DNA of 64,000 nucleotides, taken from contig CALQYT010000005.1 of NCBI GenBank assembly GCA_943348815.1, positions 5,167 through 69,166 of the forward strand, in the 5' to 3' direction. The position numbers and the translations under genes were made by a program. Source of the DNA: Candidatus Nomurabacteria bacterium. GTDB lineage: Bacteria > Patescibacteriota > Minisyncoccia > Phycocordibacterales > SBAW01. The notes under the pieces are model-generated. The model ran no database searches and had not been told where the DNA came from. It saw only the letters and a list, made by a program, of their open reading frames with translations. Positions 3,346 through 49,119 of this stretch are shown here, piece after piece (the stretch's first letter is position 1; each line of letters starts with the position of its first letter).

Positions 3346-3476
3346 TCTGCTTATTGTAGCCTAAGTGGGCTTAATTTTCTCTCTTCGCAGATTCTTGACA
3401 TCTTCATTTTAGTGTGCGAATGTGTGTCTGACAGCGGGGATCTCCCCCTGTTCGACCATCAACAGGAGTACGCACC

Positions 3477-3881
3477 TTGAAGACAGCTACCTCTTCTGCC
3501 AAAGGCATCAACGGCCAAGGCACCAATGGTCATCCCAAAGCCGGCTTGTTGGCTGGGACTGCGCTGCGCTCGCAAAAGCCGCGGAAGGCGGCCACTAGCG
3601 GCAAAAGAAAATCCACCTCGGTCGACAAACACATCGGCGGCCGTGTCCGCATGCGGCGCGAAGAGCTCGGCATGAGCCAGAAAAAACTTGGCAATGCCAT
3701 CGGGGTCGAATATCAACAGATCCAGAAGTACGAGCTCGGCAACAACCGGCTCCCCATCAGCCGCCTGCTCCAGATCGGGCTGGCCTTGAAGGACACGCCG
3801 ATCACCTTCTTCACCGAAGGAGCGACGGATCTGCTCAAGCCGGCGGCCGGTACCCAGGGCGACAAAAAGCCCACCACCTAG
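3477..3881 (+). CDS. XRE-family helix-turn-helix transcriptional regulator (TTG start)
   Basis: TTG start with an AGGAG RBS 8 nt upstream. HTH_3 signature GGRVRMRREELGMSQKKLGNAIGVEYQQIQKYELGNNR. Very GC3-rich, alphaproteobacterial-like codon usage. Intrinsic terminator at about 3905-3942. Confidence 0.7.
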   Translation: MKTATSSAKGINGQGTNGHPKAGLLAGTALRSQKPRKAATSGKRKSTSVDKHIGGRVRMRREELGMSQKKLGNAIGVEYQQIQKYELGNNRLPISRLLQIGLALKDTPITFFTEGATDLLKPAAGTQGDKKPTT

Positions 3882-3977
3882 TTCCTCGAGACATCACGAA
3901 ATGCAGCGCCCCGGACCTTCGATGGTCTGGGGCGTTTTGTTTATACAAATCAACACAATTTCTATATTTTGGTAGTC

Positions 3978-4006
3978 TTGACAAATATGCTTTTATAGAT
4001 TATAGT
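3978..4006 (+). promoter_or_regulatory. Near-consensus sigma70 promoter (TTGACA-17-TATAGT) driving the Omp25-like gene
   Basis: TTGACA at 3978-3983, 17-nt spacer, TATAGT at 4001-4006. Strong RBS AAGGGGGAT precedes the ATG at 4067. Confidence 0.55.
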
Positions 4007-4066
4007 TGAAGGTGGTAATCCGGCGCAGCACGCGTCTGGATCAAGCACCCTAAGGGGGATTTTGAC

Positions 4067-4740
4067 ATGCGTACTACTTTCAGCCTCGCTGCTCTCGCTC
4101 TGGCGGCCGCTTTCTTCTCGACTGCGGCGACTGCCCAGAATCTGCCCTACAAGGTCGCACCGACCGGCTACGACTGGAACAACTGGTACATCGGCGGCAG
4201 CGTCGGTGGCAGCTTCGCCAAGCTCGTCACAGAGCCAAGCGACCCGGTCGACTCCCTGAAACCGAATACGATCAATCTCGGCATTCAGGTTGGCAAGAAC
4301 TGGCGGCCCAGATCAACCTCGGCAAGGGCACTCGGGTCACCTCGGATCCCTTCTTTACGTTGACCGAGACGACCCAGATCCCCTACCAGGGGACGGTATT
4401 GGGCCGCATCGGTGTGTTGCCGACACCGAACATGTATGTCTACATCGGTGCCGGCGTGAGCCTGGCGCAGGTGACGCAGACAGCGCGCTTCGACGACATC
4501 TTCGGCTTTGCAGGCTGGACCAAGAGTACCAGCATTGCGGCCGGCCCGACCGGTGTGATCGGTCTGGAATTTAAACTCCCGGCCGGCTGGTCGCTCGATA
4601 CCCGCTACCAGGCCACGGACTTCTTCATGTCCAAGACCACCTCAGGATGCTCGTTCTGCGGCCCCGACTTTACGTCGAAGAGCAGCATCGTCCAGCACAC
4701 CTTCAAGGTCGGTTTCAACAAGGCCATCCGCGGCGAGTAA
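4067..4740 (+). pseudogene. Omp25/Omp31-family outer-membrane beta-barrel (porin family) gene interrupted by a frameshift near 4300-4360
   Basis: N-terminal signal peptide MRTTFSLAALALAAAFFSTAATAQ plus YDWNNWYIGGSVGG. The second ORF (4360-4740) continues the barrel with alternating amphipathic strands and ends KVGFNKAIRGE. Two overlapping ORFs in different frames. Paralog of the intact gene at 43822-44505. Confidence 0.6.
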
Positions 4741-4825
4741 CCGCGGCCGGCAAGTCCTTCAGTACAAAAAAAGAAACGGCAGCGCTCCCAGGATCACAAC
4801 CTGGGAGCGAATTGTTTATGCGGAG

Positions 4826-17194: not shown

Positions 17195-18208
17195 TTACCG
17201 CTTGGCGATGATAGCTTTCTTGTAGGTATCAAGATGGTCGAGTGCGATGCCGCTCCCTTTGGCAACACAATACAGCGCATCTTCGGCAACCTGTGCTTTA
17301 ACACCCGTGCGACGCAGCACCAACTCGGCAAAATTGCGCAACAGTGCGGTGCCACCGGTCATCGTAATGCCCGTGTCGATAATATCGGCGGCTAACTCCG
17401 GCGGTGTTTCTTGCAGCACATCGCGGATCGCTTTAATAATCTCGCGCAGCTCTTTACCCATCGCTTTGACAATATCGTTGGTGCGCAGCTCGACCGAGCG
17501 CGGGAGCCCAGTAATAAAGTCGCGACCACGTACGGTCATCGTCAACTCTTCCTCAACCGGCACCGCCGAGCCAATGCCAATTTTTACATCCTCGGCAGTT
17601 TTATCGCCGATGGCTAGGTTGTAGGTTTTCTTTATATAGTCGGTGATAGCGCGATCAAGTTTGTCACCTGCACACTTAACCGAGATTGAGGCAACGATAC
17701 CACCGAGCGATATCACCGCCACGTCGGCCGTACCACCACCAATATCTACCACCATCCGCCCGCGCGCTTCTTGAATAGGAATACCCGCGCCTATGGCTGC
17801 GAGCACCGACTCTTTAACCACATAGGCATTTTTAGCGCCCGCGCGTATTGCAGCCTCAACCACCGCGCGACGCTCGGTTGAGGTTACCCCAGTTGGTACC
17901 GACACCATCACCTCGGGTTTAAATAGTTGCCAACGCCCAAGCGCTTTGTGGATAAAATAGCGCAGCATCGCTTGCGTGACGCGGTAGTCGGCAATCACGC
18001 CGTCTTTGAGCGGCCGATAGGCGACAATCTCGCCGGGTGTGCGACCGATCATTTCTTTGGCCTCGGCACCCACCGCTAAAATTCGTTTGTCGATTTCTGA
18101 GATAGCGACCACCGACGGTTCGTTGAGTACCACGCCGCGACCGGGCACAAACACCAGGGTGTTGGCCGTCCCCAGGTCGATCCCTAGTTTGGGAGAGAAG
18201 AATGACAT
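17195..18208 (-). CDS. Second MreB/Mbl-like actin homolog
   Basis: LGIDLGTANTLVF, MVVDIGGGTADVAV, MTGGTALL. Start taken at MSFFSPKLGIDLG (ATG 18206-18208). Confidence 0.8.
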   Translation of the reverse strand: MSFFSPKLGIDLGTANTLVFVPGRGVVLNEPSVVAISEIDKRILAVGAEAKEMIGRTPGEIVAYRPLKDGVIADYRVTQAMLRYFIHKALGRWQLFKPEVMVSVPTGVTSTERRAVVEAAIRAGAKNAYVVKESVLAAIGAGIPIQEARGRMVVDIGGGTADVAVISLGGIVASISVKCAGDKLDRAITDYIKKTYNLAIGDKTAEDVKIGIGSAVPVEEELTMTVRGRDFITGLPRSVELRTNDIVKAMGKELREIIKAIRDVLQETPPELAADIIDTGITMTGGTALLRNFAELVLRRTGVKAQVAEDALYCVAKGSGIALDHLDTYKKAIIAKR

Positions 18209-18284
18209 CGCAGGCCCATGATACTGGAGTTCCACTACCAAAACAAACGTGCTATAACAACGGCGGTAGGTGGGAGATAGCACC

Positions 18285-18452
18285 ATGAATCGCACCGAGA
18301 TGTGTCAACATTGCGGGCAAGAAGTGCCCGTTGGTGAAGGCTGCAACGAGTCGCAGGCCCGGGAATGTGTCAACATGTCCGGTCGTCGTTCGCGAGAGGA
18401 GCGAGACGCAACCACATTCGACGACCGCGAAGCTTTGGAAGAACACCGCTAA
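18285..18452 (+). CDS. Small Cys-rich (zinc-ribbon-like) protein, 55 aa, GC3-rich cassette
   Basis: RBS GGTGGGAGA. MNRTEMCQHCGQEVPVGEGCNESQAREC shows a CxxC...C...C arrangement. Terminator CGCCGCGC...GCGCGG-TTTTTATTTT at 18463-18493. Confidence 0.4.
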   Translation: MNRTEMCQHCGQEVPVGEGCNESQARECVNMSGRRSREERDATTFDDREALEEHR

Positions 18453-21594: not shown

Positions 21595-22287
21595 ATGAAA
21601 GTACAAAAAATAATAGCGGGTGCCGCAGCGGCAACCGCACTTATGTTCGGCACGGCAGTATTTGCACAGAGCGCTCCCACCGTGGGTGTCACGGGCTCCT
21701 TCCCCTCAAGTGTGCAAGCGGGCACGCAGGATACGGCCGTGGCGTTTATTACGCTCACTGCATCAGGTGCACCAACCTCGACAGTAAGTGTCACTTCGCT
21801 CCCCATCGTGTTTGCAAACACGGGGGTCGTGTCGGACTGCCGGTTGCATAGCAACGGGGCAGAGCTCGGCGGTGGACTTAACACGGGCAGCAATGTGTTG
21901 CTTACCCCGGGCGTGGTTAACCAAATCATGCTCGACGCACCGCTCCAGCTAACGACTGGCGCTCCGACGACGCAGCTTACGTTGCGCTGCGACATCTCAG
22001 CTGCTACACCGGTAGGCTACGTGCTTGGCATTGCGTTTGCGCCGGGTAATATCGTCGCTCAAACCGGCACCAGCACTGCAATAATTCCTTTCGGCCTTGG
22101 TATCCCGAGCGGAGCACCGTTTGCGGGTGAGTTTACGATCCTGGGCGGCACGGGCACTCCGACTCCTACACCGGGTACTCCAAACACCGGTGCTGGTGGC
22201 AACGCAGCCATGATCCTTACCTTGCTCACCCTTGCGGGTGTGGTAGCAATCGGCGGCATGGTGCGCTTGGTCGCTCGACGCGCTTAA
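21595..22287 (+). CDS. Secreted Thr/Gly-rich protein with C-terminal sorting-signal-like anchor
   Basis: Signal peptide. C-terminus ...TPGTPNTGAGGNAAMILTLLTLAGVVAIGGMVRLVARRA is a motif, then a hydrophobic span, then a basic tail, like sortase substrates. Confidence 0.5.
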   Translation: MKVQKIIAGAAAATALMFGTAVFAQSAPTVGVTGSFPSSVQAGTQDTAVAFITLTASGAPTSTVSVTSLPIVFANTGVVSDCRLHSNGAELGGGLNTGSNVLLTPGVVNQIMLDAPLQLTTGAPTTQLTLRCDISAATPVGYVLGIAFAPGNIVAQTGTSTAIIPFGLGIPSGAPFAGEFTILGGTGTPTPTPGTPNTGAGGNAAMILTLLTLAGVVAIGGMVRLVARRA

Positions 22288-24242: not shown

Positions 24243-25466
24243 TTATTTACCCAGGTTTAGTTGTGCTCGAGTGCCTGGGCCCACATAGCCAACCGCCTCT
24301 AATCCGTGGGCTTTTTGATATGCCTGCACTGCTTTGGAAGTTACCTGCCCAAAGTAACCCGTTGCGTCGCCTGAGAAATAGTTAAGATCTTTCAGCAGTT
24401 TTTGTAATGCGGTGACGTCGGCACCCGAACTACCTACGCCCAGATATTTTTTAAACACATACAGAATTTTTGTAGCAGAGGTCGACCCTGTTGATGTTTG
24501 GGTAGTCTGTGCAGAGGTAGACGTTTGAGTAGAAGTGTCAGAGGAAGTAGCAGTAGTTGGCGGTTGATACGGCACGGTGATAGTAATGCTGGCATTCAGT
24601 TTTTGACCGCGCGTATCACTCACCGCAATAGTGAGTGGGTGCGCGCCAATATCTTTGTACTGCGGCGTAAAGCTCGCGCGGCCCGCCGAATCTATCATGA
24701 CTGAAGAACTGCTCATCCAAAAAGCATCCCGCAAAGCAAAAGTTGGATTAACAAAACCGGTTGTCGATGCCACAAAGGTCATCTTTTCGCCCACCCGCAC
24801 CGTAGTGCCCGGTAGCAAGTTAAGAAGGGTGAGCGAGGGCACGGGCAGCACCGTAAATTTCTGCGTAACCGTCGTGCTAAAGCCCGCACTGTCTTGTGCC
24901 GTGATAGTGAGCGTGTGCACCCCAATATCTTGCGGGAGCGGTGTCCAGTTAAGGAGCCCGCCCGCAGAGACAGAACTACTACGGATCGACGAACCGGGAA
25001 AAGAATCACTAATGCCGTACGTTGGGTTACTAAGGCCGGTCGTGGTGACGGTAAAAGTAACCGGGTACCCAATGGTCACGGTATCCGACGCAAGATTAGC
25101 AACACCTCCCGTTGGACCCGCAGTAACGGCGACCGTCACACTAAGCGTTGCGGTGTTACCAAGTGCATCGGCAAGACTGATGGCAAAGGTATGCGTGCCG
25201 ACATCGTCTTTGTTGGGGTACCAAACAAAGTTGCCCGAGCTATCGATGTTGCCAGTGGTCGCTCCTCCGGAGAATGAGTCGACCAACGTGTAGCTCGGGT
25301 GGCTAAAACCGCTCGGCAGGACAATAAAAGAGACGCGGGTGCCCGCAGTAACGGTGGTGCCAGGATACGGCGTAGTTGCGGTGGCCGATGCCGCAGCCGA
25401 CGCCAACACCGGAACACAGAGTAAAGAAATTCCAATTACTAGTCGTACAAAAAATTTAAAATGCAT
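24243..25466 (-). CDS. Secreted multi-Ig-like-domain protein with C-terminal peptidoglycan-binding (PG_binding_1) domain
   Basis: Signal peptide MHFKFFVRLVIGISLLCVPVLASA. Repeated beta-rich modules. C-terminus GSSGADVTALQKLLKDLNYFSGDATGYFGQVTSKAVQAYQ. Confidence 0.65.
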   Translation of the reverse strand: MHFKFFVRLVIGISLLCVPVLASAAASATATTPYPGTTVTAGTRVSFIVLPSGFSHPSYTLVDSFSGGATTGNIDSSGNFVWYPNKDDVGTHTFAISLADALGNTATLSVTVAVTAGPTGGVANLASDTVTIGYPVTFTVTTTGLSNPTYGISDSFPGSSIRSSSVSAGGLLNWTPLPQDIGVHTLTITAQDSAGFSTTVTQKFTVLPVPSLTLLNLLPGTTVRVGEKMTFVASTTGFVNPTFALRDAFWMSSSSVMIDSAGRASFTPQYKDIGAHPLTIAVSDTRGQKLNASITITVPYQPPTTATSSDTSTQTSTSAQTTQTSTGSTSATKILYVFKKYLGVGSSGADVTALQKLLKDLNYFSGDATGYFGQVTSKAVQAYQKAHGLEAVGYVGPGTRAQLNLGK

Positions 25467-25512
25467 GTCGTAATTATAGTGCATTAAAAACCGCCCCAGT
25501 TGTTGGGGGCGG

Positions 25513-26022
25513 CTATTCTCCTGGTTCTTTGTGGTATTCCCTGCGTCCTGGCCGCTGATCGCCAAAACTTTGTACCGGCGCAACGTGGCGCATTTGTTGC
25601 GGCGGCTGAAGAGGGATCGGCGAATCTGGGTCGAAGCGGGGGTTGAACATTCGCACAACCACCCTCCCCTCTACCAAGACCTTAGCCGGCAGTAACTGGC
25701 CAGCTTTGTAGTTAGTAGTTGGCGGATCATTATTTGCGAGCGCCAGGTGGTGGCCCATATACAAAACGCAATTGGGCTCTCTATCCTTATCTACTGGCCA
25801 GTAATGCACAACGGCAGCAGCCCAAGGGAAGGCTGGGTCGTCAGTCTTTACCTCCACGTGCGCTACCGCTTTGGCAATATCACTTTTCTTACGCTTGCTG
25901 AAGGGTAGCCCATGGAAACACTCAACGGTACCCGGGGGCCCGGGATACTCCCGCCAACCGTAACTTCCGTCGTCGGAAAGTTTTGTACTGAGTGGCTTAT
26001 CTACCGTGACAAATAATTTCAT
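25513..26022 (-). CDS. Hypothetical protein (170 aa), GC3-rich cassette
   Basis: GAGGGGAGCC RBS before MKLFVTVDK. Terminator CCGCCCCCAACAACTGGGGCGG-TTTTT downstream on the minus strand. No recognisable motifs. Confidence 0.4.
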   Translation of the reverse strand: MKLFVTVDKPLSTKLSDDGSYGWREYPGPPGTVECFHGLPFSKRKKSDIAKAVAHVEVKTDDPAFPWAAAVVHYWPVDKDREPNCVLYMGHHLALANNDPPTTNYKAGQLLPAKVLVEGRVVVRMFNPRFDPDSPIPLQPPQQMRHVAPVQSFGDQRPGRREYHKEPGE

Positions 26023-36149: not shown

Positions 36150-37607
36150 ATGGCTACTACTAACGGCAAGGGATTAAAAGATTTTTTGGAGATCCCGTAC
36201 GATGAATTAGAGACTCGCAATCTTAAAGCAAAAGAGCGGCAGGAAAAACTTTCTCCCCAAGCGCTGCAAAAAGAGTACGTCGCGTATTTACAAAAAGAAA
36301 AACGGATCAAAGCGGTGACGCTGTGCTTTACCGACATCGAGGGGCGCCTGCACATGCTCGACTACGACAAAAAGTTTTTGCTCGACTCGTTGCAAAATTT
36401 AACCTTCGACGGCTCCTCCATCCGCGGATTTACGCCGCAGCATGAAAGTGACCTGCGGCTCGAGGTCGACTGGGGTTCGGCGCGCTTTATGCCCGCCGAT
36501 ATTTTTGGCCCCGGCAAAGTTATCTTTTTTGCCTCGGTACTTAACCGCGACCGCACCCCCTATCACAGCGACTTCCGCGGGATGCTTAAAGCGCACACGC
36601 TTGCGTTGGCTAAAAAAGAAGGCCTCGATGCCTACGCCGCGCCCGAAATAGAGGGCTTTTTGGTAGACGGGGTCAACAGCGAACAACAATTTGAGGTCAC
36701 TAAAGGCTTTACGCTTATTTCCTCCGGCGGCTACTATCACTCGCTCCCGCAAGACAAACTCCGTATCTTTATCGACACCTGCGCCGAGGCTCAGCGCGCA
36801 ATGGGGTTTAAAAACGAAAAGGACCACCCCGAAGTGGCGCCCTCGCAGTTTGAGATGAACTTCTCTTACGCACCGGTGGTGCGTGCCGCCGACAACGTAC
36901 AACTCTACAAACTCATTTGTAGGCAAGTTGCGCGCAATATGGGGCTCACGGCAACCTTCTTGCCCAAGCCCTTTACCGGGATCAACGGCTCGGGGATGCA
37001 CACCAACTTTTCGCTCTCTAAAAAAGGCCCGGCCGGGCAGGCCAAAAATATCTTCCACGACCCCAAAGGCCAAGATGGCCTCTCCAAAATCGCGTGGGAC
37101 ATGATCTCACGGCTCTTAAACCATGCACCCGAAATTTGCCTCGTGCTCAACTCATCGGTCAATAGCTACCGCCGGCTCGACCCGCATTTTGAGGCACCCA
37201 ACCAGATTAAAGTCTCCCCTATCGACCGCGGTTCGATGATCCGCATCCCCGTCGGCAACGAGCGCACGGCGCGCATCGAGTTGCGCTCGGTCGCACCCGA
37301 CGCCAACCCCTACCTCGTGCTCTACACCATGTTGCGTGTCGGGCTTGAAGGGCAAAAATTAAAGAAAGACGAAAGCAAACGCGAGCGTCTGCGGTTTTTG
37401 CCCGACAACATCCAAGACGCGATAGCGCTGATGAAGAGCAGTAAGTTTATGGATGCGGTGTTGGGCGAGGAAAGCAAGCAGAAGTTTATTCAGTATAAGC
37501 AAGCCGCGGCGGATCGATCGCCGCGCGCACTCGGCGCGACTATCAAACGCACCGAGATTATTTATCATCACGAAGTAACGAACCAACTTCTATGGAACAG
37601 CTTTTAG
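36150..37607 (+). CDS. glnA: Glutamine synthetase
   Basis: 485 aa. FDGSSIRGF (beta-grasp) and a catalytic domain with a GSGMHTNFSL-type motif (INGSGMHTNFSLS). Confidence 0.85.
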   Translation: MATTNGKGLKDFLEIPYDELETRNLKAKERQEKLSPQALQKEYVAYLQKEKRIKAVTLCFTDIEGRLHMLDYDKKFLLDSLQNLTFDGSSIRGFTPQHESDLRLEVDWGSARFMPADIFGPGKVIFFASVLNRDRTPYHSDFRGMLKAHTLALAKKEGLDAYAAPEIEGFLVDGVNSEQQFEVTKGFTLISSGGYYHSLPQDKLRIFIDTCAEAQRAMGFKNEKDHPEVAPSQFEMNFSYAPVVRAADNVQLYKLICRQVARNMGLTATFLPKPFTGINGSGMHTNFSLSKKGPAGQAKNIFHDPKGQDGLSKIAWDMISRLLNHAPEICLVLNSSVNSYRRLDPHFEAPNQIKVSPIDRGSMIRIPVGNERTARIELRSVAPDANPYLVLYTMLRVGLEGQKLKKDESKRERLRFLPDNIQDAIALMKSSKFMDAVLGEESKQKFIQYKQAAADRSPRALGATIKRTEIIYHHEVTNQLLWNSF

Positions 37608-38953
37608 GCGCGGCGCAACGCCGCATGTTTTTGCTCCACTCGCTCTTTTGGATAGCGCTCGGGTGCGCGGTCGGTTGGCTGGCAACCTACTTTGCCGGCG
37701 CCTCGGCGGGCGATGCGGGGAGCGCCATCTCCAGCGGCGACACCGCGTGGATGCTTGCCTCCTCGGCATTAGTCATGATTATGACCCCGGCGGTGGGCTT
37801 CTTTTACGGCGGCATGGTGTCGTCTAAAAATGTCGTCTCGGTCATTAAACAATCGCTGATTATTCTTGCGCTCATTTCGGTGCAGTGGGTGGTGTTTGGC
37901 TACTCGCTCGCGTTTGGCCCGGACACGGGGCTCGGTATTATTGGCAATCTCAGCTTCTTTGGGCTCCATGGCGTCGGCTTTGCACCCGACCCCAACTACG
38001 CCGCAACGATCCCCGCGCTCGTGTTTATGATCTTCCAGGCAATGTTTGCGATCATCACGCCAGCACTCATCATTGGCGCCTTTGTTGAGCGCATTAAATT
38101 TAAAACCCTCGTACTCTTCACCTTATTGTGGGCAACGCTGGTGTATGACCCGGTCGCGCACTGGGTGTGGTCACCGATGGGATGGCTCCACTCGCTCGGC
38201 GCCTTGGATTTTGCGGGCGGCACCGTGGTGCACATGACGGCCGGATTCTCGGCGCTCGCGGCCGCGATGTTGGTAGGCAAACGCTTGCAAGGCAGCAGCC
38301 CCGCGCAGAGCGCGGGCAACGTCCCGTTTGTTATTTTGGGCGCCGCCCTCTTGTGGTTTGGCTGGTTTGGCTTTAATGCCGGCTCGGCCCTGGCGGCCGG
38401 TGCGCTCGCCGCAAGTGCCTTTGTGGTTACTAACACGGCGGCTGCAGCAGCCGCGCTTACGTGGGTCGCCCTTTCGTGGGCAGAAAATCGCAAACCCTCC
38501 GCCATGGCCGCCGCGATAGGTGCGGTGTGCGGACTTGTGGCCATAACGCCCGCCTCAGGCTATGTTGGCCCGGTCGCGGCAATTGCTATCGGTATTCTGG
38601 GCGGCGCCGTCACCTACTTGGCGGTCTACTTCCGCAGCCGGCGAATACGCATCGACGACTCGCTCGACGTTTGGGCGGGCCACGGCATTGGCGGACTTAC
38701 GGGCGCCATACTCACCGGTGTCTTTGCCGAAAAAGCAATCAACGCCGCGGGCAACAACGGACTCTTGTTTGGCGATCCGCACCAACTCTGGGTGCAGATT
38801 ATTGCCGTCGCCGCGGTTGGCGTCTACTCATTTGTCGCCACGTGGATCATACTCAAAGTAATTGCAATCTACGTCCCCTTGCGTGTTGAGTCGCACGAAG
38901 AAGAAGCGGGCCTCGACCTCGCCGTCCACGGCGAACCTGCCTATCGTAACTAA
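37592..38953 (+). CDS. amtB: Ammonium transporter Amt
   Basis: 453 aa, about 11 TM segments. DTAWMLASSALVMIMTPAVGFFYGGMV and DFAGGTVVHMTAG signatures. Confidence 0.9.
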   Translation: MEQLLGAAQRRMFLLHSLFWIALGCAVGWLATYFAGASAGDAGSAISSGDTAWMLASSALVMIMTPAVGFFYGGMVSSKNVVSVIKQSLIILALISVQWVVFGYSLAFGPDTGLGIIGNLSFFGLHGVGFAPDPNYAATIPALVFMIFQAMFAIITPALIIGAFVERIKFKTLVLFTLLWATLVYDPVAHWVWSPMGWLHSLGALDFAGGTVVHMTAGFSALAAAMLVGKRLQGSSPAQSAGNVPFVILGAALLWFGWFGFNAGSALAAGALAASAFVVTNTAAAAAALTWVALSWAENRKPSAMAAAIGAVCGLVAITPASGYVGPVAAIAIGILGGAVTYLAVYFRSRRIRIDDSLDVWAGHGIGGLTGAILTGVFAEKAINAAGNNGLLFGDPHQLWVQIIAVAAVGVYSFVATWIILKVIAIYVPLRVESHEEEAGLDLAVHGEPAYRN

Positions 38954-39855: not shown

Positions 39856-40677
39856 ATGGCAACGCTCACTATTGGCACGCGCGGGAGCAAGCTTGCGCTG
39901 GTGCAAACCGATCTTACGGCACAAGCGCTTAAACGTGCCGACCCGACGCTCGAAATTAAAATCCGGGTTATAGAAACACACGGCGACCAAAACCAAAACC
40001 CCATCCCGCTCGACACGATTGGCAAGGGATGGTTTACCAAAGAAATTGAAGAGGGGCTGCTAAAAAAAGAAATAGATCTTGCGGTGCATAGCCTTAAAGA
40101 TTTAGCCGAGGAGATGCCCGCAGAACTTACGATCGCCGCTTATTTGCCGCGCGAGGACGCGCGGGACGTGCTGATTACCAAACAGGGCGAGTCGTTAGAA
40201 GAACTAAAACAAGGTGCGATCATTGGCACCGACAGCACGCGCCGATCGGTGCAAATTAAAGCACTCCGCCCCGACTTGGTAGTGCAAAGCCTGCGCGGCA
40301 ATGTACCGACCCGCGTACAAAAATTGCAAACCGAACAGTATGACGCCATTATTTTGGCGGCTGCCGGACTCAAACGTTTGGGGATGGCAGACAAAATCAC
40401 CCGCTACTTTGAGCCATACGAAATGACGCCGGCACCGGGCCAAGGAATACTCGCCGTGCAAACCCGCGCCGACACATCGTCAGGCGATCTGATTAGGCGT
40501 ATCAACGATAAAAAGGCGGCCACTGCGGCAGAGCTAGAGCGCACCTTTTCGGCCAAACACGGTGGCGGCTGCAAATCGCCAACGGGCGCCTACGCGTGGT
40601 GCGAGGGTTCAAAATGGTACTTGCTTGGCATGACCGAGCAGAATGGTAAGATCATGCGCGAAACTCATGAGATTTGA
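39856..40677 (+). CDS. hemC: Porphobilinogen deaminase (hydroxymethylbilane synthase)
   Basis: MATLTIGTRGSKLALVQTD..., the canonical HemC N-terminus. Dipyrromethane cofactor Cys near the C-terminus (GGCKSP). Confidence 0.85.
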   Translation: MATLTIGTRGSKLALVQTDLTAQALKRADPTLEIKIRVIETHGDQNQNPIPLDTIGKGWFTKEIEEGLLKKEIDLAVHSLKDLAEEMPAELTIAAYLPREDARDVLITKQGESLEELKQGAIIGTDSTRRSVQIKALRPDLVVQSLRGNVPTRVQKLQTEQYDAIILAAAGLKRLGMADKITRYFEPYEMTPAPGQGILAVQTRADTSSGDLIRRINDKKAATAAELERTFSAKHGGGCKSPTGAYAWCEGSKWYLLGMTEQNGKIMRETHEI

Positions 40678-41197
40678 GGTGCGCATAACTACTTCCCCGC
40701 TTTCTGTGCGCCTACCAAAACTCGAGCGCTACGATTTGATTGTCTTCACCAGCAAAAACGCTCAAAAGTTTTTTACTTTGGCGCTACATAAATATAAAAC
40801 AAAAATACCCAAGCATGCCCGCGTAGTACGCGTTGGTCCAAGAGCAGAACTTCTCAAACTCGAATTAAAAAATAAAAAGATTTTATTCCCCCGCTCCGAC
40901 CTCGCGCCGTTTGCTATCATCCGCCAACTCCGCGCACGCGGTGCTCAAGTGCGCGTACTGCCGCTCTACACTACCGACGCCGTTTTACTTACCAAAAAAC
41001 AAAAAGAATCTTTACTTGAGGGCGCTTACCGCGAGCTCTATTTTAAAAGCCCCTCAGGAGTCACCGGTTTTTTGCAGCAGTTTAACCGCATACAACAAAA
41101 ACAACTGCTCAGTATCCCCGCACTCTGTATCGGAACTACCACCGCAAGCGCCGCCAAAGCTGCGGGGTTTAAAAAAGTCTCAATACGGTACTATTAG
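40643..41197 (+). CDS. hemD: Uroporphyrinogen-III synthase (short)
   Basis: YDLIVFTSKNAQKFF (HemD signature). Overlaps the hemC 3' end. 184 aa is shorter than usual. Confidence 0.55.
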   Translation: MVRSCAKLMRFEVRITTSPLSVRLPKLERYDLIVFTSKNAQKFFTLALHKYKTKIPKHARVVRVGPRAELLKLELKNKKILFPRSDLAPFAIIRQLRARGAQVRVLPLYTTDAVLLTKKQKESLLEGAYRELYFKSPSGVTGFLQQFNRIQQKQLLSIPALCIGTTTASAAKAAGFKKVSIRYY

Positions 41198-41200
41198 GCT

Positions 41201-41836
41201 ATGCCCTACCACAGCTACATCTTTTTTGACGGCATCCCCGGCGCACCCAAAAAAGCGAAAGAAGCTTTTGCCAAACGCATCGCTAAAGAAAAGCGCGTGC
41301 GTACACGCGCCTACGCAACACTTGGGTTTAAACGGGGCACGCACTTTATGCTCCACTGCAACACCAAAGCGCCCGATATTATTCAAGAATTTATCCGCGA
41401 CCTCTTGCACACCGAGCTAGGAAAGTATTTGCGCATCAGCTACACCCTGCTGGGCATGACGCGCTCATCGCAATACAACCCCAAAAAACCACCGGCACAA
41501 AGCGCGCCCGAAGCACCGCATCGCTATCTAGTGGTCTACCCCTTTACTAAAACGGTCGAGTGGCACCTACTGCCCTACGATGAGCGGCGCGCGATGATGA
41601 AGGCGCATGTCGAGGTTGGGCGCGCCTACGCCAGCAGTATTTCGCAACTTCTACTCTACTCGTTTGGGATCGACGACCACGAGTTTATTGTTTCGTACCA
41701 AATGGACGACCTTGATGAGTTTCAACAACTCGTGATGGAGCTGCGCGGTACCGAAGGCCGTCGCTATACCAAAAACGACACGCCAATATTTACCTGCACC
41801 CATATGCCGGTTGCCGAGGCGCTTGAGATGCTATGA
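41201..41836 (+). CDS. hemQ: Chlorite-dismutase-family coproheme decarboxylase (HemQ-like)
   Basis: RYLVVYPFTKTVEWHLLPYDERRAMMKAHVEVGR and the C-terminal ferredoxin-like half are typical of the Cld/HemQ family. Confidence 0.6.
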   Translation: MPYHSYIFFDGIPGAPKKAKEAFAKRIAKEKRVRTRAYATLGFKRGTHFMLHCNTKAPDIIQEFIRDLLHTELGKYLRISYTLLGMTRSSQYNPKKPPAQSAPEAPHRYLVVYPFTKTVEWHLLPYDERRAMMKAHVEVGRAYASSISQLLLYSFGIDDHEFIVSYQMDDLDEFQQLVMELRGTEGRRYTKNDTPIFTCTHMPVAEALEML

Positions 41837-42819
41837 GTAATTTGTTTTTGCGCGCCTGCCGCGGCGAGCGCGTTGAGCGGGTGCCGGTGTGGTTTATGCG
41901 CCAGGCGGGACGCTCACTGCCCCGCTATCGCGAGCTACGCAAAACCTACGGCGTACTTGAGCTAACCCAAACTCCCGCATTGGCGGCGGAGGTGAGTATC
42001 GAGCCCATAGAGCGCCTTGGGGTTGATGCGGCAATACTCTTTGCCGACATTATGCTCTTGCCCATGGCGATGGGCGTCGACGTACAAATAGTAGAGGGTG
42101 TGGGCCCCGTGATAGCCAAACCGGGGCCGGAGTTGCAGCCATTTGACCCGAGCCGTGTGGCGTTTTTGGCAGAGACCATAAAAATTTTGCGCTCCAAACT
42201 TGCGGTGCCAGTAATTGGGTTTAGCGGCGCGCCGTTTACGCTCGCCAGTTATTTAATCGAGGGTAAGCCGAGCCGCACCTGGCTCACCACAAAGAAGTTT
42301 ATGCTCGAGCGCCCGGCCGAGTGGGACCTCCTGATGCAAAAGCTTTCGGACGGGGTCATTGAGTACCTAAAATTACAAATTGCCGCGGGCGCGCAAGCGG
42401 TGCAGTTGTTTGATAGTTGGGTGGGATGTCTCTCGCCCGTACAGTATCGCGCGCAAGTGCTACCGCATGTGCAGAAAATTTTTAAAGCGCTCGGCCCCAC
42501 GGTTCCGCGCTTACACTTTGGCACACACACGGCCGGCATGCTCGAAGATTTTGCCAATGTCGAGTGCGAGGTTATTGGGGTTGACTGGCGCATAAGCCTT
42601 GCCGAGGCACGCAAGCGCATTGGCAATAAAACTTTGCAAGGCAACCTCGACCCAACACTGCTGCTTGGCCCGTGGGAGGCACTAACCCAAACGGTCGATC
42701 ATATGCTGGCCGAAATAGACTCAAAACAAAAGTACATTTTTAATCTTGGCCACGGCATGCTGCCCGAAGCCAATGATGCGGTGGTTAAAAAACTGGTTGA
42801 CTATGTCCACACCAAATAA
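41833..42819 (+). CDS. hemE: Uroporphyrinogen decarboxylase
   Basis: MSNLFLRACRGERVERVPVWFMRQAGRSLPRYRELRK, the canonical HemE N-terminus. ATGCTATGA overlap with hemQ. Confidence 0.9.
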   Translation: MSNLFLRACRGERVERVPVWFMRQAGRSLPRYRELRKTYGVLELTQTPALAAEVSIEPIERLGVDAAILFADIMLLPMAMGVDVQIVEGVGPVIAKPGPELQPFDPSRVAFLAETIKILRSKLAVPVIGFSGAPFTLASYLIEGKPSRTWLTTKKFMLERPAEWDLLMQKLSDGVIEYLKLQIAAGAQAVQLFDSWVGCLSPVQYRAQVLPHVQKIFKALGPTVPRLHFGTHTAGMLEDFANVECEVIGVDWRISLAEARKRIGNKTLQGNLDPTLLLGPWEALTQTVDHMLAEIDSKQKYIFNLGHGMLPEANDAVVKKLVDYVHTK

Positions 42820-43684
42820 AACGGAGGGAAAAGTAGGGGTGGTACTGATGACCTACGGCTCGGCCACCACGGCCGAACATGTAGCCGAGTACTTTGCCCA
42901 TATATATAAGAGTCCGTCGCTCGAGCTTATTGCTGACTTTGAAAACCGCTACCGGTTGGTAGGCCGCTCGCCCTTGGTTGAAATTACCCAAAAGCAAGCC
43001 GCACTCCTACAAGAAAAACTAGGGACAAATTTTGTGGTGCGCGCTGGCATGCGACACTCAGCACCCTTTATTGCCGATGCGGTAGCTGAGTGTCGCGCCG
43101 AGGGTGCCACCGTGCTGCGCGGCATCATACTCTCGCCGCAATACTCGCCCGTTATTATGCGCGGATACGAAACCGAGTTTGCCACGGCGGCGCAACAAGG
43201 GGGATTTACGGATTTTAAAATCGCGCCACCGTGGCCTACCCAGCCGCGGTTTGTCGAGTTGCTCGCGCAGCGTATTGAGCGCGCACTGACTCAACCTATG
43301 CCGGTGATATTTACCACCCACAGTTTGCCCAAAAAAGTAATTGACCAAGACCCAAGCTACCTCAGCCAACTGCAAGCAACCATCGACGCGGTGCGCGCAC
43401 TACTCCCGGCCGACCTCAAATGGTGTGCAGCGTACCAAAGCGCCGGCCACACGCCCGAAGAGTGGCTCAAGCCCGACCTGGTTGATGTTTTGCGAGAACT
43501 GCGCGGCAAAAAATCATCGGTTTTGATCGTCCCCATCCAATTCCTCTCCGACCATTTAGAAGTCCTCTACGACCTCGACATCGCCGCCCGCGCCCAGTGC
43601 GAGGAGTTTGGGATTGCGTATAATCGTATTGAGTTACCCAACACTCACCCTCTTTTTATTTCCGCATTATCCTCTTTAATTTGA
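42803..43684 (+). CDS. hemH: Ferrochelatase (probably coproporphyrin ferrochelatase)
   Basis: KVGVVLMTYGSATTAEHVAEYFAHIYK N-terminus, HSLP-type motif (IFTTHSLPKK), and C-terminal QFLSDHLEVLYDLD. Confidence 0.8.
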   Translation: MSTPNKTEGKVGVVLMTYGSATTAEHVAEYFAHIYKSPSLELIADFENRYRLVGRSPLVEITQKQAALLQEKLGTNFVVRAGMRHSAPFIADAVAECRAEGATVLRGIILSPQYSPVIMRGYETEFATAAQQGGFTDFKIAPPWPTQPRFVELLAQRIERALTQPMPVIFTTHSLPKKVIDQDPSYLSQLQATIDAVRALLPADLKWCAAYQSAGHTPEEWLKPDLVDVLRELRGKKSSVLIVPIQFLSDHLEVLYDLDIAARAQCEEFGIAYNRIELPNTHPLFISALSSLI

Positions 43685-43821
43685 CATTTGGTTATCCCCG
43701 TGCGGTAGTTGATAATAGTTTTAGGGATGATATACTCATCAACGGATGGGCGCGTTCCATCTCTCAGCCTGCAGCTGGGCCTATGAGTCGACTTTAACGT
43801 TAACTCTCGGGAGAAATTGAA

Positions 43822-44505
43822 ATGAAACGTGCAATGATGGCAGCCCTCGGGCTGCTTGCGATGGCACCCGTGGCGCAAGCCGCGGATTTGCCAAGTCCTC
43901 CGTGGAAAGCGCCGGCGTTCTCGGCAGTCCCCGGAAACTTCAGTGGCCTCACCGTCGGCATCATCGGTGCTGGCGCGTGGGCGAGCGGCCCGACCAGTGG
44001 CGCGTTCGGTGGCATCCAGGTTGGCTACAATTGGCAAAACGGCCCCTGGGTGGTCGGCGTGAATACCGACATCCTGCTGGGCAGCCAGAAGCACTCGACC
44101 GGCGTCAACATGGCCGGCGTGAGCTTTGACTTCACGGACCGGGCGAACTATCTCGGTTCGGTTACCGCCAAACTGGGCGTCACTCCGGCGTCGCAATGGC
44201 TGTTCTACGGCGAAATCGGCGGGGCCTATAGCACCGTCTATCACAAGATTGGCCTCAGCCCGATCGCCGGCACTGTCTCGGCCAAGTCCAACAAGGTCGG
44301 ACTGACCGCAGGCGGGGGCGTCGTCTATGCTCTGACGCCGAATCTGCAACTCGAAGCCAAGTACAATGCGATCTGGTTCTCGGGTGATAGCCCCACCTAC
44401 GTCTACGGTCCGGTATCCTTCGTCGTCAGTTATCCGAAGGTCACCGAGCACGTGGCGAAGGTCGGCATCAACTACCGTTTCGACAACACCGCCTGGCGCT
44501 TCTAG
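43822..44505 (+). CDS. Omp25/Omp31-family outer-membrane beta-barrel protein (porin-family OMP), intact
   Basis: Signal peptide MKRAMMAALGLLAMAPVAQA. Alternating-hydrophobic strands. C-terminal ...VGINYRF with terminal Phe. GGGAGAAATTGAA RBS. GC3-rich. Terminator 44540-44575. Confidence 0.7.
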   Translation: MKRAMMAALGLLAMAPVAQAADLPSPPWKAPAFSAVPGNFSGLTVGIIGAGAWASGPTSGAFGGIQVGYNWQNGPWVVGVNTDILLGSQKHSTGVNMAGVSFDFTDRANYLGSVTAKLGVTPASQWLFYGEIGGAYSTVYHKIGLSPIAGTVSAKSNKVGLTAGGGVVYALTPNLQLEAKYNAIWFSGDSPTYVYGPVSFVVSYPKVTEHVAKVGINYRFDNTAWRF

Positions 44506-44539: not shown

Positions 44540-44575
44540 AAGGCCGCCCTTCGGGAGCGGCCTTTTTGTTTCCAA
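44540..44575. terminator. Bidirectional intrinsic terminator GGCCGCCC-TTCG-GGAGCGGCC-TTTTTG
   Basis: GC-rich stem with a TTCG tetraloop and a T-tract. Between the convergent OMP gene and the SWIB gene. Confidence 0.65.
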
Positions 44576-44591
44576 AAAACGAAAACTTGAA

Positions 44592-44849
44592 TTATTTCAT
44601 GTGGCCCGAGACGAGCTTCGTCATCTCGAACATAGTAACCTCTCCTTTGCCACCAAACAGCTTCTTAAGCTTGTCGTCCGCAAGGATGTTGCGCTTATTC
44701 TTAGGATTCTGAAGATTATGCTTCTTGATGTACTCCCAGATCTTTTTAACAACCGTGCCGCGCGACATAGGACCTTTGCCTACGACGGCTTCCAAATCGG
44801 CGGAGAGATTAAGGGGCTTGAGTAATGCGGGGTTAGCTTTGCGTACCAT
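44592..44849 (-). CDS. SWIB/MDM2-domain protein
   Basis: 85 aa. GKGPMSRGTVVKKIWEYIKKHNLQNPKNKRNILADDKLKKLFG is the canonical SWIB motif. Confidence 0.8.
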   Translation of the reverse strand: MVRKANPALLKPLNLSADLEAVVGKGPMSRGTVVKKIWEYIKKHNLQNPKNKRNILADDKLKKLFGGKGEVTMFEMTKLVSGHMK

Positions 44850-47265: not shown

Positions 47266-47995
47266 TTTGCAGGTTTAACCTGCATTTTGTGTTGTAAAAT
47301 AAAATCACTATGGCTACTCGAGCACCATTGCAGATCGGCGAATGGTACCACTGTTTCAATCGCGGTGTGGACAAACGATCTATTTTTGAGGACTCGCGAG
47401 ATTACGAACGATTCTTAGTACATCTCTACGTCAGTAATGGTACTCGAAATATTCGCATCTCGAGTCTGCCAAACACTCGGCTGAAAGAGGTAGTAGCAAA
47501 CCAAAAGATAGACCGCGGAGAATCGTTAGTTGAAATCGGAGCATATGCCCTTATGCCTTCTCATCCCCACCTGCTTATGCGCCAAGTACGAGAAAACGGT
47601 ATCGCTCTGTTCATGCAAAAAGTATTTACTGGTTACACCATGTATTTTAATAACAAGTATACGCGTACCGGAAGTCTTTTTGCCGGCACTTTTAAATCAA
47701 AACATATTCTCGATGATCTATATCTTAAAAGGGTCCTACCTTATGTATTACTTAACCCGGTTGAACTATTCGAGCCACGTTGGAAGAATGGTGTTGGATT
47801 CTTACCCCGTATCGCTAAGAAACTAGAAGATTATCCTTACACTAATCTTTCAAATTTTCTCCAAAAGGGTAACCCCCACGAAAAGATAGCTACTACGGAT
47901 TGGTCTGCTTATTACGAAAAAATACCAACTCTAAAAGAAATGCTCCAAGAGGCTCAAGCGTATTATGCCGAACGTAACCTTGCAGGTTAAACCTG
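47266..47995 (+). mobile_element. RAYT unit: REP-associated tyrosine transposase flanked by TGCAGG-TT(T)AA-CCTGCA hairpins
   Basis: Hairpin at 47278-47294 upstream and 47981-47995 overlapping the stop codon. A related hairpin lies at 59415-59431. Confidence 0.6.
47310..47990 (+). CDS. REP-associated tyrosine transposase (IS200/IS605-like HUH Y1 transposase, RAYT)
   Basis: WYHCFNRGVDKRSIFEDSRDYERFLVHLY and the HUH motif in AYALMPSHPHLLMRQ. Tyr-containing C-terminal region (YTMYFNNKYTRTGSLF). Confidence 0.7.
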   Translation: MATRAPLQIGEWYHCFNRGVDKRSIFEDSRDYERFLVHLYVSNGTRNIRISSLPNTRLKEVVANQKIDRGESLVEIGAYALMPSHPHLLMRQVRENGIALFMQKVFTGYTMYFNNKYTRTGSLFAGTFKSKHILDDLYLKRVLPYVLLNPVELFEPRWKNGVGFLPRIAKKLEDYPYTNLSNFLQKGNPHEKIATTDWSAYYEKIPTLKEMLQEAQAYYAERNLAG

Positions 47996-48036: not shown

Positions 48037-48639
48037 TTAGCTTGCTAGTGTGGCGTATACCACCAAGCGATGGTCGTAGGTTTTAGCGCCCTGCACCCAC
48101 GCGCCGTCGCAGGTTACTAAGTTAAGCCGCGCCTGATCGGCCCGCGAAAATAATTTTTGGAGCGGAACTTCTTGATACGGATACAGCGCCACTTCTTGCA
48201 CCACAAAGCGGCGCGTTGCCCCGCCCGCAGTGTCAACAAATAATTCGTCGCCTTTTTTAATTTGATTCAATTGTTTAAATACCCCCGGCAGCGCTAACCC
48301 ATTGTCGACATGGCCATCCATCACCGCGCTCCCCACAAAGCCGGGCACGGTGCCCAAGCGATACCATCCGACATCGGTGTAGTTGGTTGGCACGGCCATG
48401 TTGCCGGTTTTGCCAACACCCACGTGCTGCACGTTGGTGTCGATGCCCAAACTTGGGATGCGCAAACGGCTCGGCAGATCTTGTGGCGAGGCATCCCCCA
48501 TGAGCGGTTGCGGCTGCACGGCCGCCTCCGGCTCTTGCGGAGCAACAACCGTTGCTTGCCAAAACGTCACGCTAAAAACACCCGCGCCAAGCAGGACCGC
48601 TGCCAGTGCCGCGAGCACTTTGATGGTTCGTGATTTCAT
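48037..48639 (-). CDS. Sortase-family transpeptidase
   Basis: N-terminal TM. Catalytic TLXTC-type motif NLVTCDG, with upstream His (MDGHVDNG) and downstream Arg. Confidence 0.7.
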   Translation of the reverse strand: MKSRTIKVLAALAAVLLGAGVFSVTFWQATVVAPQEPEAAVQPQPLMGDASPQDLPSRLRIPSLGIDTNVQHVGVGKTGNMAVPTNYTDVGWYRLGTVPGFVGSAVMDGHVDNGLALPGVFKQLNQIKKGDELFVDTAGGATRRFVVQEVALYPYQEVPLQKLFSRADQARLNLVTCDGAWVQGAKTYDHRLVVYATLAS

Positions 48640-48651
48640 CTTGAAGATTGG

Positions 48652-49119
48652 CTAGCCCAACACCTTAGTATGAAAGAAATTTCTGAAAACGAGATGAACA
48701 ATCCAGACGGCGGCCACCGCGAGCACGACACTCGCCATAATATCTACCGGCCAGTGAAGCCCGGCCATAATGCGCGCGACGCCTACGGCGAGGGTCAAAA
48801 CCCAAAGGGCTACACCCACGCGCCAGTCGACTAGCCACGCCACCGAAGCAAAGACGCCACCGAGCAAGGTGTGGTCAGAGGGGAATGAGTTGTCGACCTC
48901 GTGAGGAACCAGTGGCGTAAATCCTTCGACCGCAAAGGGTTGTTGGTGGCTAAAAAAAACTCCGGCCAAACGCGCGAGTACGTAGCCCAGTGCGAGCGAG
49001 ACAACGAGTACCGCATACAACTGCACACGCAAGCGGGGACGGCTCCATATCGCCACCACTGCCGCGAGCGCGATAATCGCTATTAAATATTTTGCCGCAA
49101 AAATTATGAGGATGTTCAT
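48652..49119 (-). CDS. PAP2-family phosphatase (undecaprenyl-diphosphatase-like)
   Basis: PSDH and ARIMAGLHWPVD PAP2 motifs. 4 TM segments. Confidence 0.65.
   Translation of the reverse strand: MNILIIFAAKYLIAIIALAAVVAIWSRPRLRVQLYAVLVVSLALGYVLARLAGVFFSHQQPFAVEGFTPLVPHEVDNSFPSDHTLLGGVFASVAWLVDWRVGVALWVLTLAVGVARIMAGLHWPVDIMASVVLAVAAVWIVHLVFRNFFHTKVLG

Follow-up and report, generated by a model that had tools for sequence, protein, structure and literature searches.

We analyzed a stretch of 64,000 nucleotides (here called the window) from a Candidatus Nomurabacteria bacterium (GCA_943348815.1, contig CALQYT010000005.1, positions 5,167 to 69,166), the sequence of which is part of the ENA contig ERZ27280317 k141_122670 (75,641 bp). 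The window harbors two genes of the Omp25/Omp31 family of outer membrane beta-barrel proteins, an intact gene designated OMP2 (43822-44505) and a frameshifted gene designated OMP1 (4067-4740). The Patescibacteria, or candidate phyla radiation (CPR), comprise a large share of bacterial diversity and are thought to be single-membrane epibionts, most of whose hosts and attachment mechanisms are unknown. An outer membrane barrel with a C-terminal signal that is read by the beta-barrel assembly machinery (BAM) has no obvious place in a single-membrane cell. The following features were identified at the OMP2 locus.

43709..43736, forward strand: sigma-70-like promoter of OMP2, TTGATA, 16 nt, TG-n-TATACT (extended -10), with 10/12 matches plus the TG
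43809..43812, forward strand: Shine-Dalgarno sequence of OMP2, GGAG, 8 nt 5' of the ATG, with GGAG or GGGG at the equivalent place in 4/4 loci
43822..44505, forward strand: OMP2, an intact 227-aa eight-stranded barrel of the Omp25/Omp31 family, as judged from PF13505, AlphaFold2, Foldseek and syntenic orthologs
43822..43881, forward strand: signal peptide of OMP2 (aa 1-20), read by inspection
44540..44572, bidirectional: intrinsic terminator, a GC-rich hairpin with a T-run between the convergent OMP2 and SWIB genes
44592..44849, reverse strand: SWIB gene, 85 aa (PF02201, 106.5 bits), the convergent neighbor of OMP2 and a synteny marker

The OMP2 protein matches the Pfam profile PF13505 (OMP_b-brl) with 42.6 bits (gathering cut-off, 28.7) and OmpA_membrane with 27.7 bits (cut-off, 21), and the Omp25/Omp31-type assignment proposed in an initial annotation of the window is thereby upheld. 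Its N terminus, MKRAMMAALGLLAMAPVAQA|ADLP, corresponds by inspection to a predicted Sec signal peptide with an A-x-A site, in agreement with the signal peptide that had been proposed, and A18, A20 and D22 in this region do not vary among family members or among the four orthologs described below. The C terminus, ...KVGINYRFDNTAWRF, contains the beta-signal GINYRF and, after it, seven further residues, the last of which is once more Phe. The INYRF motif had been described as terminal; the last residue is indeed Phe, but the motif itself lies 7 residues before the end. With the end ...VGINYRFDNTAWRF, OMP2 has an aromatic C-terminal beta-signal, and its three orthologs end in ...NYRF. The structure predicted with AlphaFold2 from an alignment of 38 family members (alignment A1; mean pLDDT 86.2, pTM 0.75) consists of the signal helix and eight long antiparallel strands. 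When the model was compared with the PDB by Foldseek, the best matches were the OmpA transmembrane domain, Ail, OpcA, OmpX, NspA, OmpW and OprF; for the first six, which are characterized eight-stranded barrels, the probability was 1.0, E values were 1e-8 to 1e-5, and target-length-normalized TM-scores were 0.44-0.71. The proposed beta-barrel architecture is thus borne out at the level of a predicted eight-strand barrel and its resemblance to small outer membrane barrels. By sequence, predicted fold and motifs, OMP2 is a member of the PF13505/Omp25-Omp31 group.

In a word-indexed protein search, OMP2 gave matches of alphaproteobacterial type at ~27-35% identity. An exhaustive phmmer/HMMER scan of 1.84 billion cluster representatives gave 3,802 matches at E<=1e-3, and three of these proved to be syntenic orthologs: P0067 on contig L091 (SRR16608030), P0068 on L090 (GCA_041643115.1) and P0070 on L092 (SRR26786763). 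They are 228-229 aa in length and 36-40% identical to OMP2, with 111-127 bits, and the next single-barrel match scored ~94 bits. The word-indexed search had missed all three orthologs, and a reading of OMP2 as an orphan or as recent cargo, which that search had suggested, was overturned by the exhaustive scan. A negative word-indexed search is unreliable for fast-evolving surface proteins. The scan also returned longer proteins (P0069, 998 aa; P0071, 906 aa; P0072-P0078 and many others, ~450-500 aa) with 2-5 tandem Omp25-type barrel units, each carrying YNWTGFY...GINYRF; these may be genuine multibarrel fusions, or else tandem gene arrays of alphaproteobacteria-like genomes may have been read through.

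The gene arrangement around OMP2 is conserved. In L091, the genes after OMP are a convergent SWIB gene of 85 aa (83% identity), a small open reading frame (ORF; 55%) and a histidine kinase (61%), in the order seen in the window; in L090, they are SWIB (86%), an Ig-repeat protein with a peptidoglycan-binding domain, and PAP2 (60%); and in L092, SWIB (82% over the part present). The order promoter-OMP-terminator-SWIB is found in the window and in L090, L091 and L092, with neighboring genes that are 55-86% identical. All three ortholog promoters retain the -35 element and the extended -10 element, TTGACA-17-TGCTATACT or TGCTATTCT, so that across the four loci the -35 element is TTGACA or TTGATA and the extended -10 element is TG-n-TATACT or TATTCT. 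The terminator hairpin, CAAAGG(G)CCGC...GCGGCC(C)TTTTT, is likewise present in L090, L091 and L092, and the RNA fold of the window intergenic region was computed. No conserved RNA structure was found in the OMP2 leader, and Rfam gave no match. OMP2, P0067, P0068 and P0070 formed a clade in 159/200 neighbor-joining (NJ) bootstraps of 124 family members. The next-tier match P0088 lies in a context of 64-66% GC without SWIB, and L089, the only relative of the window's heme operon that the metagenome scan returned, contains hemCDQEH with neither OMP nor SWIB after hemH. These two observations suggest that the OMP2 module is restricted to a subclade.

Selection on OMP2 was assessed from four-fold sites, the near-saturation of synonymous sites and the open-frame probability. 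At the third positions of conserved four-fold codons, the four loci are 0.31-0.50 identical, compared with 0.32-0.38 expected from composition, and the SWIB and histidine kinase genes exhibit a synonymous divergence comparable to that of OMP; OMP has therefore diverged together with its neighbors to near-saturation. The chance that a random frame of ~228 codons with the same composition stays free of stops is 1-2e-3 per lineage, and the ORF is intact in 4/4 members of the clade (227-229 aa). The signal peptide and the terminal NYRF are present in all four proteins, among which 45 residues are invariant. Intact ORFs over near-saturated synonymous sites indicate purifying selection on OMP2 over a long vertical history, and, as far as four sequences can tell, the gene is probably still functional in its carriers. 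Conservation is higher in the strands at the base of the barrel (0.70-0.77) than in the hairpin tips and the L4 loop (0.53-0.56); a conserved base with variable tips is, as read from these alignments, the pattern of surface-exposed outer membrane proteins. The OMP protein evolves faster than all of its neighbors, with 34-40% identity among orthologs versus 55-86% for the neighboring genes, and this rate suits a putative role at a surface or interface.

With the Omp25/Omp31 proteins of the Hyphomicrobiales/Rhizobiales (annotated as "outer membrane immunogenic protein," PF13505), OMP2 shares its size (~220-240 aa), the Sec signal peptide, whose A-x-A site precedes AD(L)P, the motif GG-Q-(V/L)-GYNWQ of the second strand, eight amphipathic strands, and, at the C terminus, (K)(V/A)G(I/L)NYRF, optionally with a short extension whose last residue is aromatic. 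Unlike these proteins, OMP2 and its three orthologs form a clade of their own that is only 27-37% identical to any proteobacterial member, carry the motifs GS(T/V)(V/T)AK(V/L)G..P and F-x-GD-x-x-x-Y, have lost the YNWTGFY of strand 1, display a reduced contrast between hydrophobic and polar positions, and are encoded in genomes of Patescibacteria type, a group considered to have neither an outer membrane nor BAM. The OmpA transmembrane domain, OmpX, Ail, NspA, OpcA and OmpW have the same fold as that predicted for OMP2, whose long protruding hairpins are similar to the ones in OmpX and Ail; the sequence identity is 11-19%, and, in contrast to the setting of OMP2, OmpA/OmpX/Ail-type barrels work in a lipopolysaccharide outer membrane, where they are assembled by BAM.

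The remainder of the window points to a Patescibacteria genome. Its class I LysRS is 72% identical to that of a "Patescibacteria group bacterium," 65% identical to that of a Ca. Paceibacterota metagenome-assembled genome (MAG) and 62% identical to that of a Ca. Adlerbacteria MAG, and the gene order GreA-PBP2-MreC-MreB-ProRS is common to the window and dozens of CPR loci retrieved through LysRS. On sequence evidence of this kind, the backbone is that of a Paceibacteria-like member of the Patescibacteria, in keeping with the CPR-like, monoderm-looking backbone that the initial annotation had described. Pfam annotation also confirmed its class I LysRS, its sortase (48037-48639, reverse strand) and its peptidoglycan-binding/Ig-like and FN3-like surface proteins. 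The sortase-substrate-like protein at 21595-22287 (forward strand) stood up as well, with a C-terminal TPNTGAGG, a hydrophobic stretch and RLVARRA that resemble a sorting signal; the product is secreted and rich in Thr, Pro and Gly, the signal is noncanonical, and the sortase, at a distance of 26 kb, is a possible partner of the protein. Among the annotated genes of the 75.6 kb inspected, which is part of the genome only, there was no BAM, Lpt, Lol or Tol gene. The ferrochelatase, OMP2 and SWIB junctions are identical in four assemblies (the 75.6-kb ENA contig, Logan ERR5863124, Logan ERR5863125 and ERZ27280321), and the OMP1 locus was recovered in two, the ENA contig and the Logan contig L005 (ERR5863124), which was made by a different assembler. 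Since the same junctions recur in several assemblies, chimerism, which the initial annotation had raised, is very unlikely.

OMP1 lies at the other end of the window, in an insertion with the following features.

3346..4825, unstranded: lineage-specific insertion, 1,480 bp, between LysRS (1825-3345, reverse strand) and GreA (4826-5287, reverse strand)
3477..3881, forward strand: Xre-family helix-turn-helix (HTH) regulator of alphaproteobacterial type (PF01381 HTH_3), in the same insertion as OMP1
3905-3936: terminator of the Xre gene, from a terminator scan
3978..4006, forward strand: promoter-like site of OMP1, TTGACA-17-TATAGT, 11/12, from a promoter scan
4067..4740, forward strand: OMP1 pseudogene, frame 1 at 4067-4303 and frame 3 at 4303-4740, with a +-1 frameshift at ~4301-4305
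4783..4809, forward strand: terminator-like hairpin 3' of OMP1, a 10-bp stem with 8 GC pairs, from a terminator scan

Frame 1 of OMP1 runs to ...GIQVGKNW (~4303) and meets a stop at 4363, and frame 3 continues to the stop at 4740. The two pieces align to profile positions 2-54 (N-terminal) and 87-171 (C-terminal) of PF13505 with 13.9 and 26.5 bits, both below the cut-off, and the joined sequence aligns end to end with 60.5 bits to a family hidden Markov model (HMM) built from the matches of the word-indexed OMP2 search. The sequence and its two-piece gene call are identical in the second assembly (Logan ERR5863124, L005), and there is no homopolymer run at the frameshift. The frameshifted second copy reported at 4067-4740 is consequently real as far as a second assembler can reproduce it, with the shift at ~4303. 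Programmed frameshifting was rejected by eye, with no slippery heptamer at 4298-4306 and a C-terminal signal that is also degenerate; the protein would end in ...VGFNKAIRGE, in which the aromatic beta-signal is lost. The frameshift together with the lost beta-signal identifies OMP1 as a pseudogene. The description of OMP1 as a paralog of OMP2 holds insofar as both belong to the same family, but not in the sense of a recent duplicate: they are 26% identical and share no clade, OMP1 joining the OMP2 clade in 11/200 NJ bootstraps. The reconstructed OMP1 gave no single-sequence match at E<=1e-3 among 5.8e9 proteins.

In 75/80 Patescibacteria loci GreA adjoins LysRS; the median length of the spacer between them is 87 bp in these 75 loci, versus 1,480 bp in the window. 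No OMP or Xre homolog was found within +-10 kb in any of the 80 Patescibacteria LysRS loci, and the family HMM detected no further Omp25-like gene among all ORFs of these loci (~1.4 Mb). As OMP1 and the Xre gene fill a 1.48-kb insertion in a spacer that is normally 87 bp, OMP1 is decaying cargo. A tblastn search with Xre against a collection of mostly enterobacterial plasmids gave matches in 739 records; among the matches listed, the genera were all alphaproteobacterial (Rhizobium, Sinorhizobium, Agrobacterium, Azospirillum, Caulobacter and roseobacters), at 37-48% identity. The best matches in a large protein database are ~60% identical over the HTH half. By its sequence affinities, the pair of OMP1 and Xre fits the picture of alphaproteobacterial-type DNA that was inserted into an otherwise conserved spacer. 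The closest Xre relative, on contig L086 (ENA ERZ27286115 k141_430087; 61% over the HTH half), lies beside LuxI/LuxR genes, and Xre-bearing genomes of proteobacterial type occur in the same accession series as the sample of the window.

Unrelated inserts occupy the GreA-LysRS spacer in several other CPR genomes (L006, 7487-8189; L019, 8697-10000; L035, 8725-10000) and include helical membrane proteins of 151 aa and 218 aa as well as small ORFs without Pfam matches, so that the spacer appears to receive foreign genes repeatedly. The same spacer in the Patescibacteria MAG H43-bin025_1 (L017:558-1325, reverse strand) contains a beta-rich secreted ORF of 255 aa, with the signal peptide ...GLGTAHA|ADAP, the C terminus ...GLKFGGACSF and a GC content at third codon positions (GC3) of 0.84 versus 0.58 in the adjacent LysRS. 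It had no sequence match in Pfam, NCBIfam, PHROG or the PDB, and hhalign aligned the signal peptide only; this may be a further gene of foreign origin, for a secreted or beta-barrel-like protein, at the insertion site of OMP1.

Other genes of the window are of interest in their own right. Pfam annotation identified aminoacyl-tRNA synthetases, RseP, RRF, a short HolB, MurA, Def, a short Fmt, two MreB genes, a peptidoglycan-binding/Ig-like protein, an FN3-like protein, glutamine synthetase, Amt, a hemC-D-Q-E-H operon, SWIB, a MASE1 hybrid kinase, sortase, PAP2, glycosyltransferases and two GH130 enzymes. The MreB paralogs (8006-9061 and 17195-18295, both reverse strand) are both full-length, each with ~441 bits on MreB_Mbl, and together with MreC and PBP2 they make up a complete rod-shape system in a small genome. 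The heme operon (39856-43684, forward strand) comprises hemC, hemD, a hemQ/chlorite-dismutase-like gene, hemE and hemH and is of the coproporphyrin-dependent type. This route is typical of monoderms, and it is unusual for Patescibacteria to make heme. On a 67.8-kb metagenome contig (L089:3909-7897), the operon recurs in synteny at 44-70% identity. Immediately 5' of the operon lie genes for glutamine synthetase and an ammonium transporter (36150-38953, forward strand), which exceed the usual nitrogen metabolism of a reduced CPR genome. At a distance of 2.8 kb from OMP2, a 226-aa ORF (47310-47990, forward strand; GC3, 0.37) has a weak match to an IS200-like Y1 transposase (E value, 0.004) and homologs in the CPR loci L061 and L084 (42-45% identity); it may be an element associated with repetitive extragenic palindromes or of IS200 type.

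Taken together, these results make it reasonably probable that OMP2 derives from an old transfer and has been retained vertically under selection, with OMP1 as a separate, dead copy. An alphaproteobacterium-like diderm would have been the source from which OMP2 passed horizontally to an ancestor of a Paceibacteria subclade. As the comparison of the four loci shows, the gene has since been inherited as a complete transcription unit (strong sigma-70-type promoter, Shine-Dalgarno sequence, ORF and hairpin terminator) beside the convergent SWIB gene and has remained intact in four diverged lineages. It is presumably expressed, and its product would be exported by Sec, lose its signal peptide, fold into a barrel outside the cytoplasmic membrane and serve at the surface. 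OMP1 arrived separately, in the same 1.48-kb insertion as the Xre regulator, and has since become a pseudogene. The named relatives of the OMP family outside the four contigs discussed here are from Bradyrhizobium, Rhodopseudomonas and Pseudolabrys, all of them alphaproteobacterial; they are distant, with identities mostly of 25-48% (~60% for the HTH half of Xre), and no specific donor was identified. Nothing convincing in the way of flanking repeats or tRNA integration sites was found near the OMP loci. Patescibacteria are described as epibionts or parasites that take up foreign genes, and a type IV secretion system has been proposed to stem from monoderm partners (PMC12102498). OMP1 and Xre are like other horizontally acquired genes of this group in forming an insertion of alphaproteobacterial type; the barrels differ from such genes in that the product is specific to the outer membrane, a compartment that the recipient is believed to lack, and in that one copy has nonetheless been retained for long. 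In the literature searched, there was no report of a conserved, syntenic clade of OMP-type barrels in CPR.

Several points weigh against this account. Four known orthologs and an NJ bootstrap of 80% are not decisive. The contigs L090-L092 are short (1.1-3.7 kb) and without taxonomic marker genes, and the CPR identity of their carriers is inferred from the similarity and order of flanking genes; the window contig itself is placed in the Patescibacteria by LysRS and synteny. A search for a donor in which Xre and OMP are linked gave none among the Xre relatives, P0052 lying beside LuxI/LuxR genes and P0056 among small ORFs. The GC3 of the OMP and Xre genes is 0.76-0.84, compared with 0.59+-0.08 for the backbone (maximum, 0.72 among 52 genes), but high GC3 is not diagnostic: the gene at 10495-11601 has a GC3 of 0.77. 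This 368-aa ORF (forward strand) has no Pfam match, and its homologs (23-30% identity) occupy the syntenic position in the three CPR loci L014, L007 and L019, which argues that it is a native CPR-specific gene and thus that GC3 alone is an unreliable marker of transfer here. The fit of the OMP and Xre genes in codon usage was not distinctive either, and composition as proof of a foreign origin is weakened on both counts. Finally, the alternation of lipid-facing and polar residues is present in OMP2, but its contrast is weaker than in the proteobacterial family: at family-hydrophobic positions the Kyte-Doolittle (KD) hydropathy of the four orthologs is 1.71-2.12 versus 2.77+-0.50 (z of -1.3 to -2.1), and family-polar positions are less polar in all four CPR orthologs (z of +2.3 to +3.4). 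This reduced contrast could signify a protein that is no longer embedded in a membrane, or an alignment artefact in divergent sequences. The evidence is computational and comes from four sequences, three of them on short contigs.

Five other explanations were considered. The first regards OMP-SWIB-(small ORF)-histidine kinase as a transferable island, with L090-L092 derived from diderm donors and OMP2 as a passenger in CPR. It draws on the missing marker genes of these contigs, on SWIB, the histidine kinase and PAP2, which are not shown to be CPR-specific, and on the break of synteny 5' of OMP2 in the nearest heme-operon relative (L089). We consider it quite unlikely. The GC content of L090-L092 is 56-59%, like that of the window, whereas that of a high-GC diderm carrier of the family (L093, L094) is 64-66%; the Ig-repeat protein of L090, with its C-terminal peptidoglycan-binding domain, resembles the product of 24243-25658 in the window, and the L090 PAP2 resembles that at 48652-49119. 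The differences in gene order amount to local rearrangements and are compatible with vertical descent, the synonymous divergence of OMP equals that of its neighbors, and no integrase, repeat or tRNA signatures are present at the OMP2 locus of the window.

A second explanation, that OMP2 is nonfunctional cargo like OMP1, recently acquired and with its decay yet to come, appears improbable. The word-indexed search gave no close relative (best, 34-35%), the GC3 of OMP2 (0.78) is at the top of the range of the genome, long ORFs persist by chance in GC-rich DNA (the antisense ORF at 43645-44451 spans 268 aa), and the other copy in this genome has already become a pseudogene. Against this stand the three syntenic orthologs in diverged genomes, with promoter, terminator and SWIB kept; a length, frame, signal peptide and beta-signal retained while synonymous sites went to near-saturation; and an ortholog GC3 that matches that of the neighboring genes. 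The initial annotation had put nonfunctional cargo first among its readings; this fits the frameshifted OMP1 in its lineage-specific insertion, but not OMP2 with its three intact syntenic orthologs.

The third explanation is that the Paceibacteria subclade has an outer lipid layer or an outer membrane-like structure in which OMP2 would normally reside. The signal peptide, the eight amphipathic strands and the terminal NYRF are kept in 4/4 orthologs, the combination of conserved base and variable exposed tips is typical of outer membrane proteins, and envelopes have been imaged for very few CPR lineages (PMC8871954). However, CPR are treated as a monoderm clade that lacks outer membrane systems (10.1101/2021.05.31.446380; PMC12102498), the window encodes a sortase, a substrate with a sorting-like signal and peptidoglycan-binding surface proteins, the 75.6 kb inspected yielded no BAM, Lpt, Lol or Tol gene, and the hydrophobic contrast is reduced in all four orthologs. 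We regard a resident of this kind as unlikely.

It is very improbable that the barrels are moron genes of a prophage or mobile element, like lambda Lom or Ail. Phage barrels (lambda Lom, the Ail/Lom family and phage OMP_b-brl proteins) have the same fold and are a precedent for OMP genes that move on mobile DNA (BFVD, E values down to 7e-9 at 10-21% identity); the Xre beside OMP1 matches phage repressor PHROGs, and expressed eight-stranded outer membrane proteins can block phage adsorption in Escherichia coli (10.1101/2025.02.28.640651). Unlike phage barrels, OMP1 and OMP2 have no sequence match to phage families, PHROG included, and no phage structural, integrase, tRNA or att features occur near either locus; the weak IS200-like ORF is 2.8 kb off and has CPR homologs. 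Least credible is an assembly chimera or a bin contaminated by a co-occurring alphaproteobacterium, for although the family is otherwise alphaproteobacterial, GC3 is high and a related Xre lies on a proteobacterial-type (LuxI/LuxR) contig of the same accession series (ERZ27286115), both loci are inside one contig with CPR-syntenic genes on either side, MEGAHIT-type and Logan assemblies from several runs reproduce the junctions exactly, alphaproteobacterial relatives reach at best ~35% identity where contamination would give near-identity, and the orthologs in other datasets have the same CPR-type neighbors.

The location of OMP2 is a separate question from the old transfer and vertical retention that we favor, and the candidates, which are the outer membrane of a host, an unrecognized outer layer of the CPR cell, and the wall zone, as a soluble or peripheral barrel, are put forward with far less confidence than that history. 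The most likely role, weakly supported at present, is one at the contact with the envelope of a diderm (alphaproteobacterial) host, or in another hydrophobic layer. A diderm host, which the initial annotation had suggested as one meaning of these genes, is plausible in light of sequence affinities, with the named OMP relatives and the listed plasmid matches of Xre all alphaproteobacterial. This raises the possibility, to which we assign a rather low probability, that OMP2 is a captured host-type barrel, with the assembly signal of the host still in place, which Paceibacteria living on alphaproteobacteria-like diderm hosts export as an effector or anchor, or that it marks a CPR subclade with an unseen outer lipid layer. 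If the former were true, the barrel would insert into or dock onto the host outer membrane, for attachment or for tapping lipids or nutrients that CPR cannot make; a host interaction or an outer layer of this kind would be new CPR cell biology and would give a clue to the host.

In monoderm groups, small numbers of transmembrane barrels have been predicted before (PMC10629564). OMP2 bears on whether all CPR lack an outer layer, on how epibionts meet diderm hosts, and on the prediction of hosts from captured envelope genes, which here would be alphaproteobacteria related to Bradyrhizobium, Rhodopseudomonas or Pseudolabrys. The dead OMP1 in the same genome suggests that such genes arrive repeatedly and are usually lost, and it is against this background that the retained OMP2 stands out.

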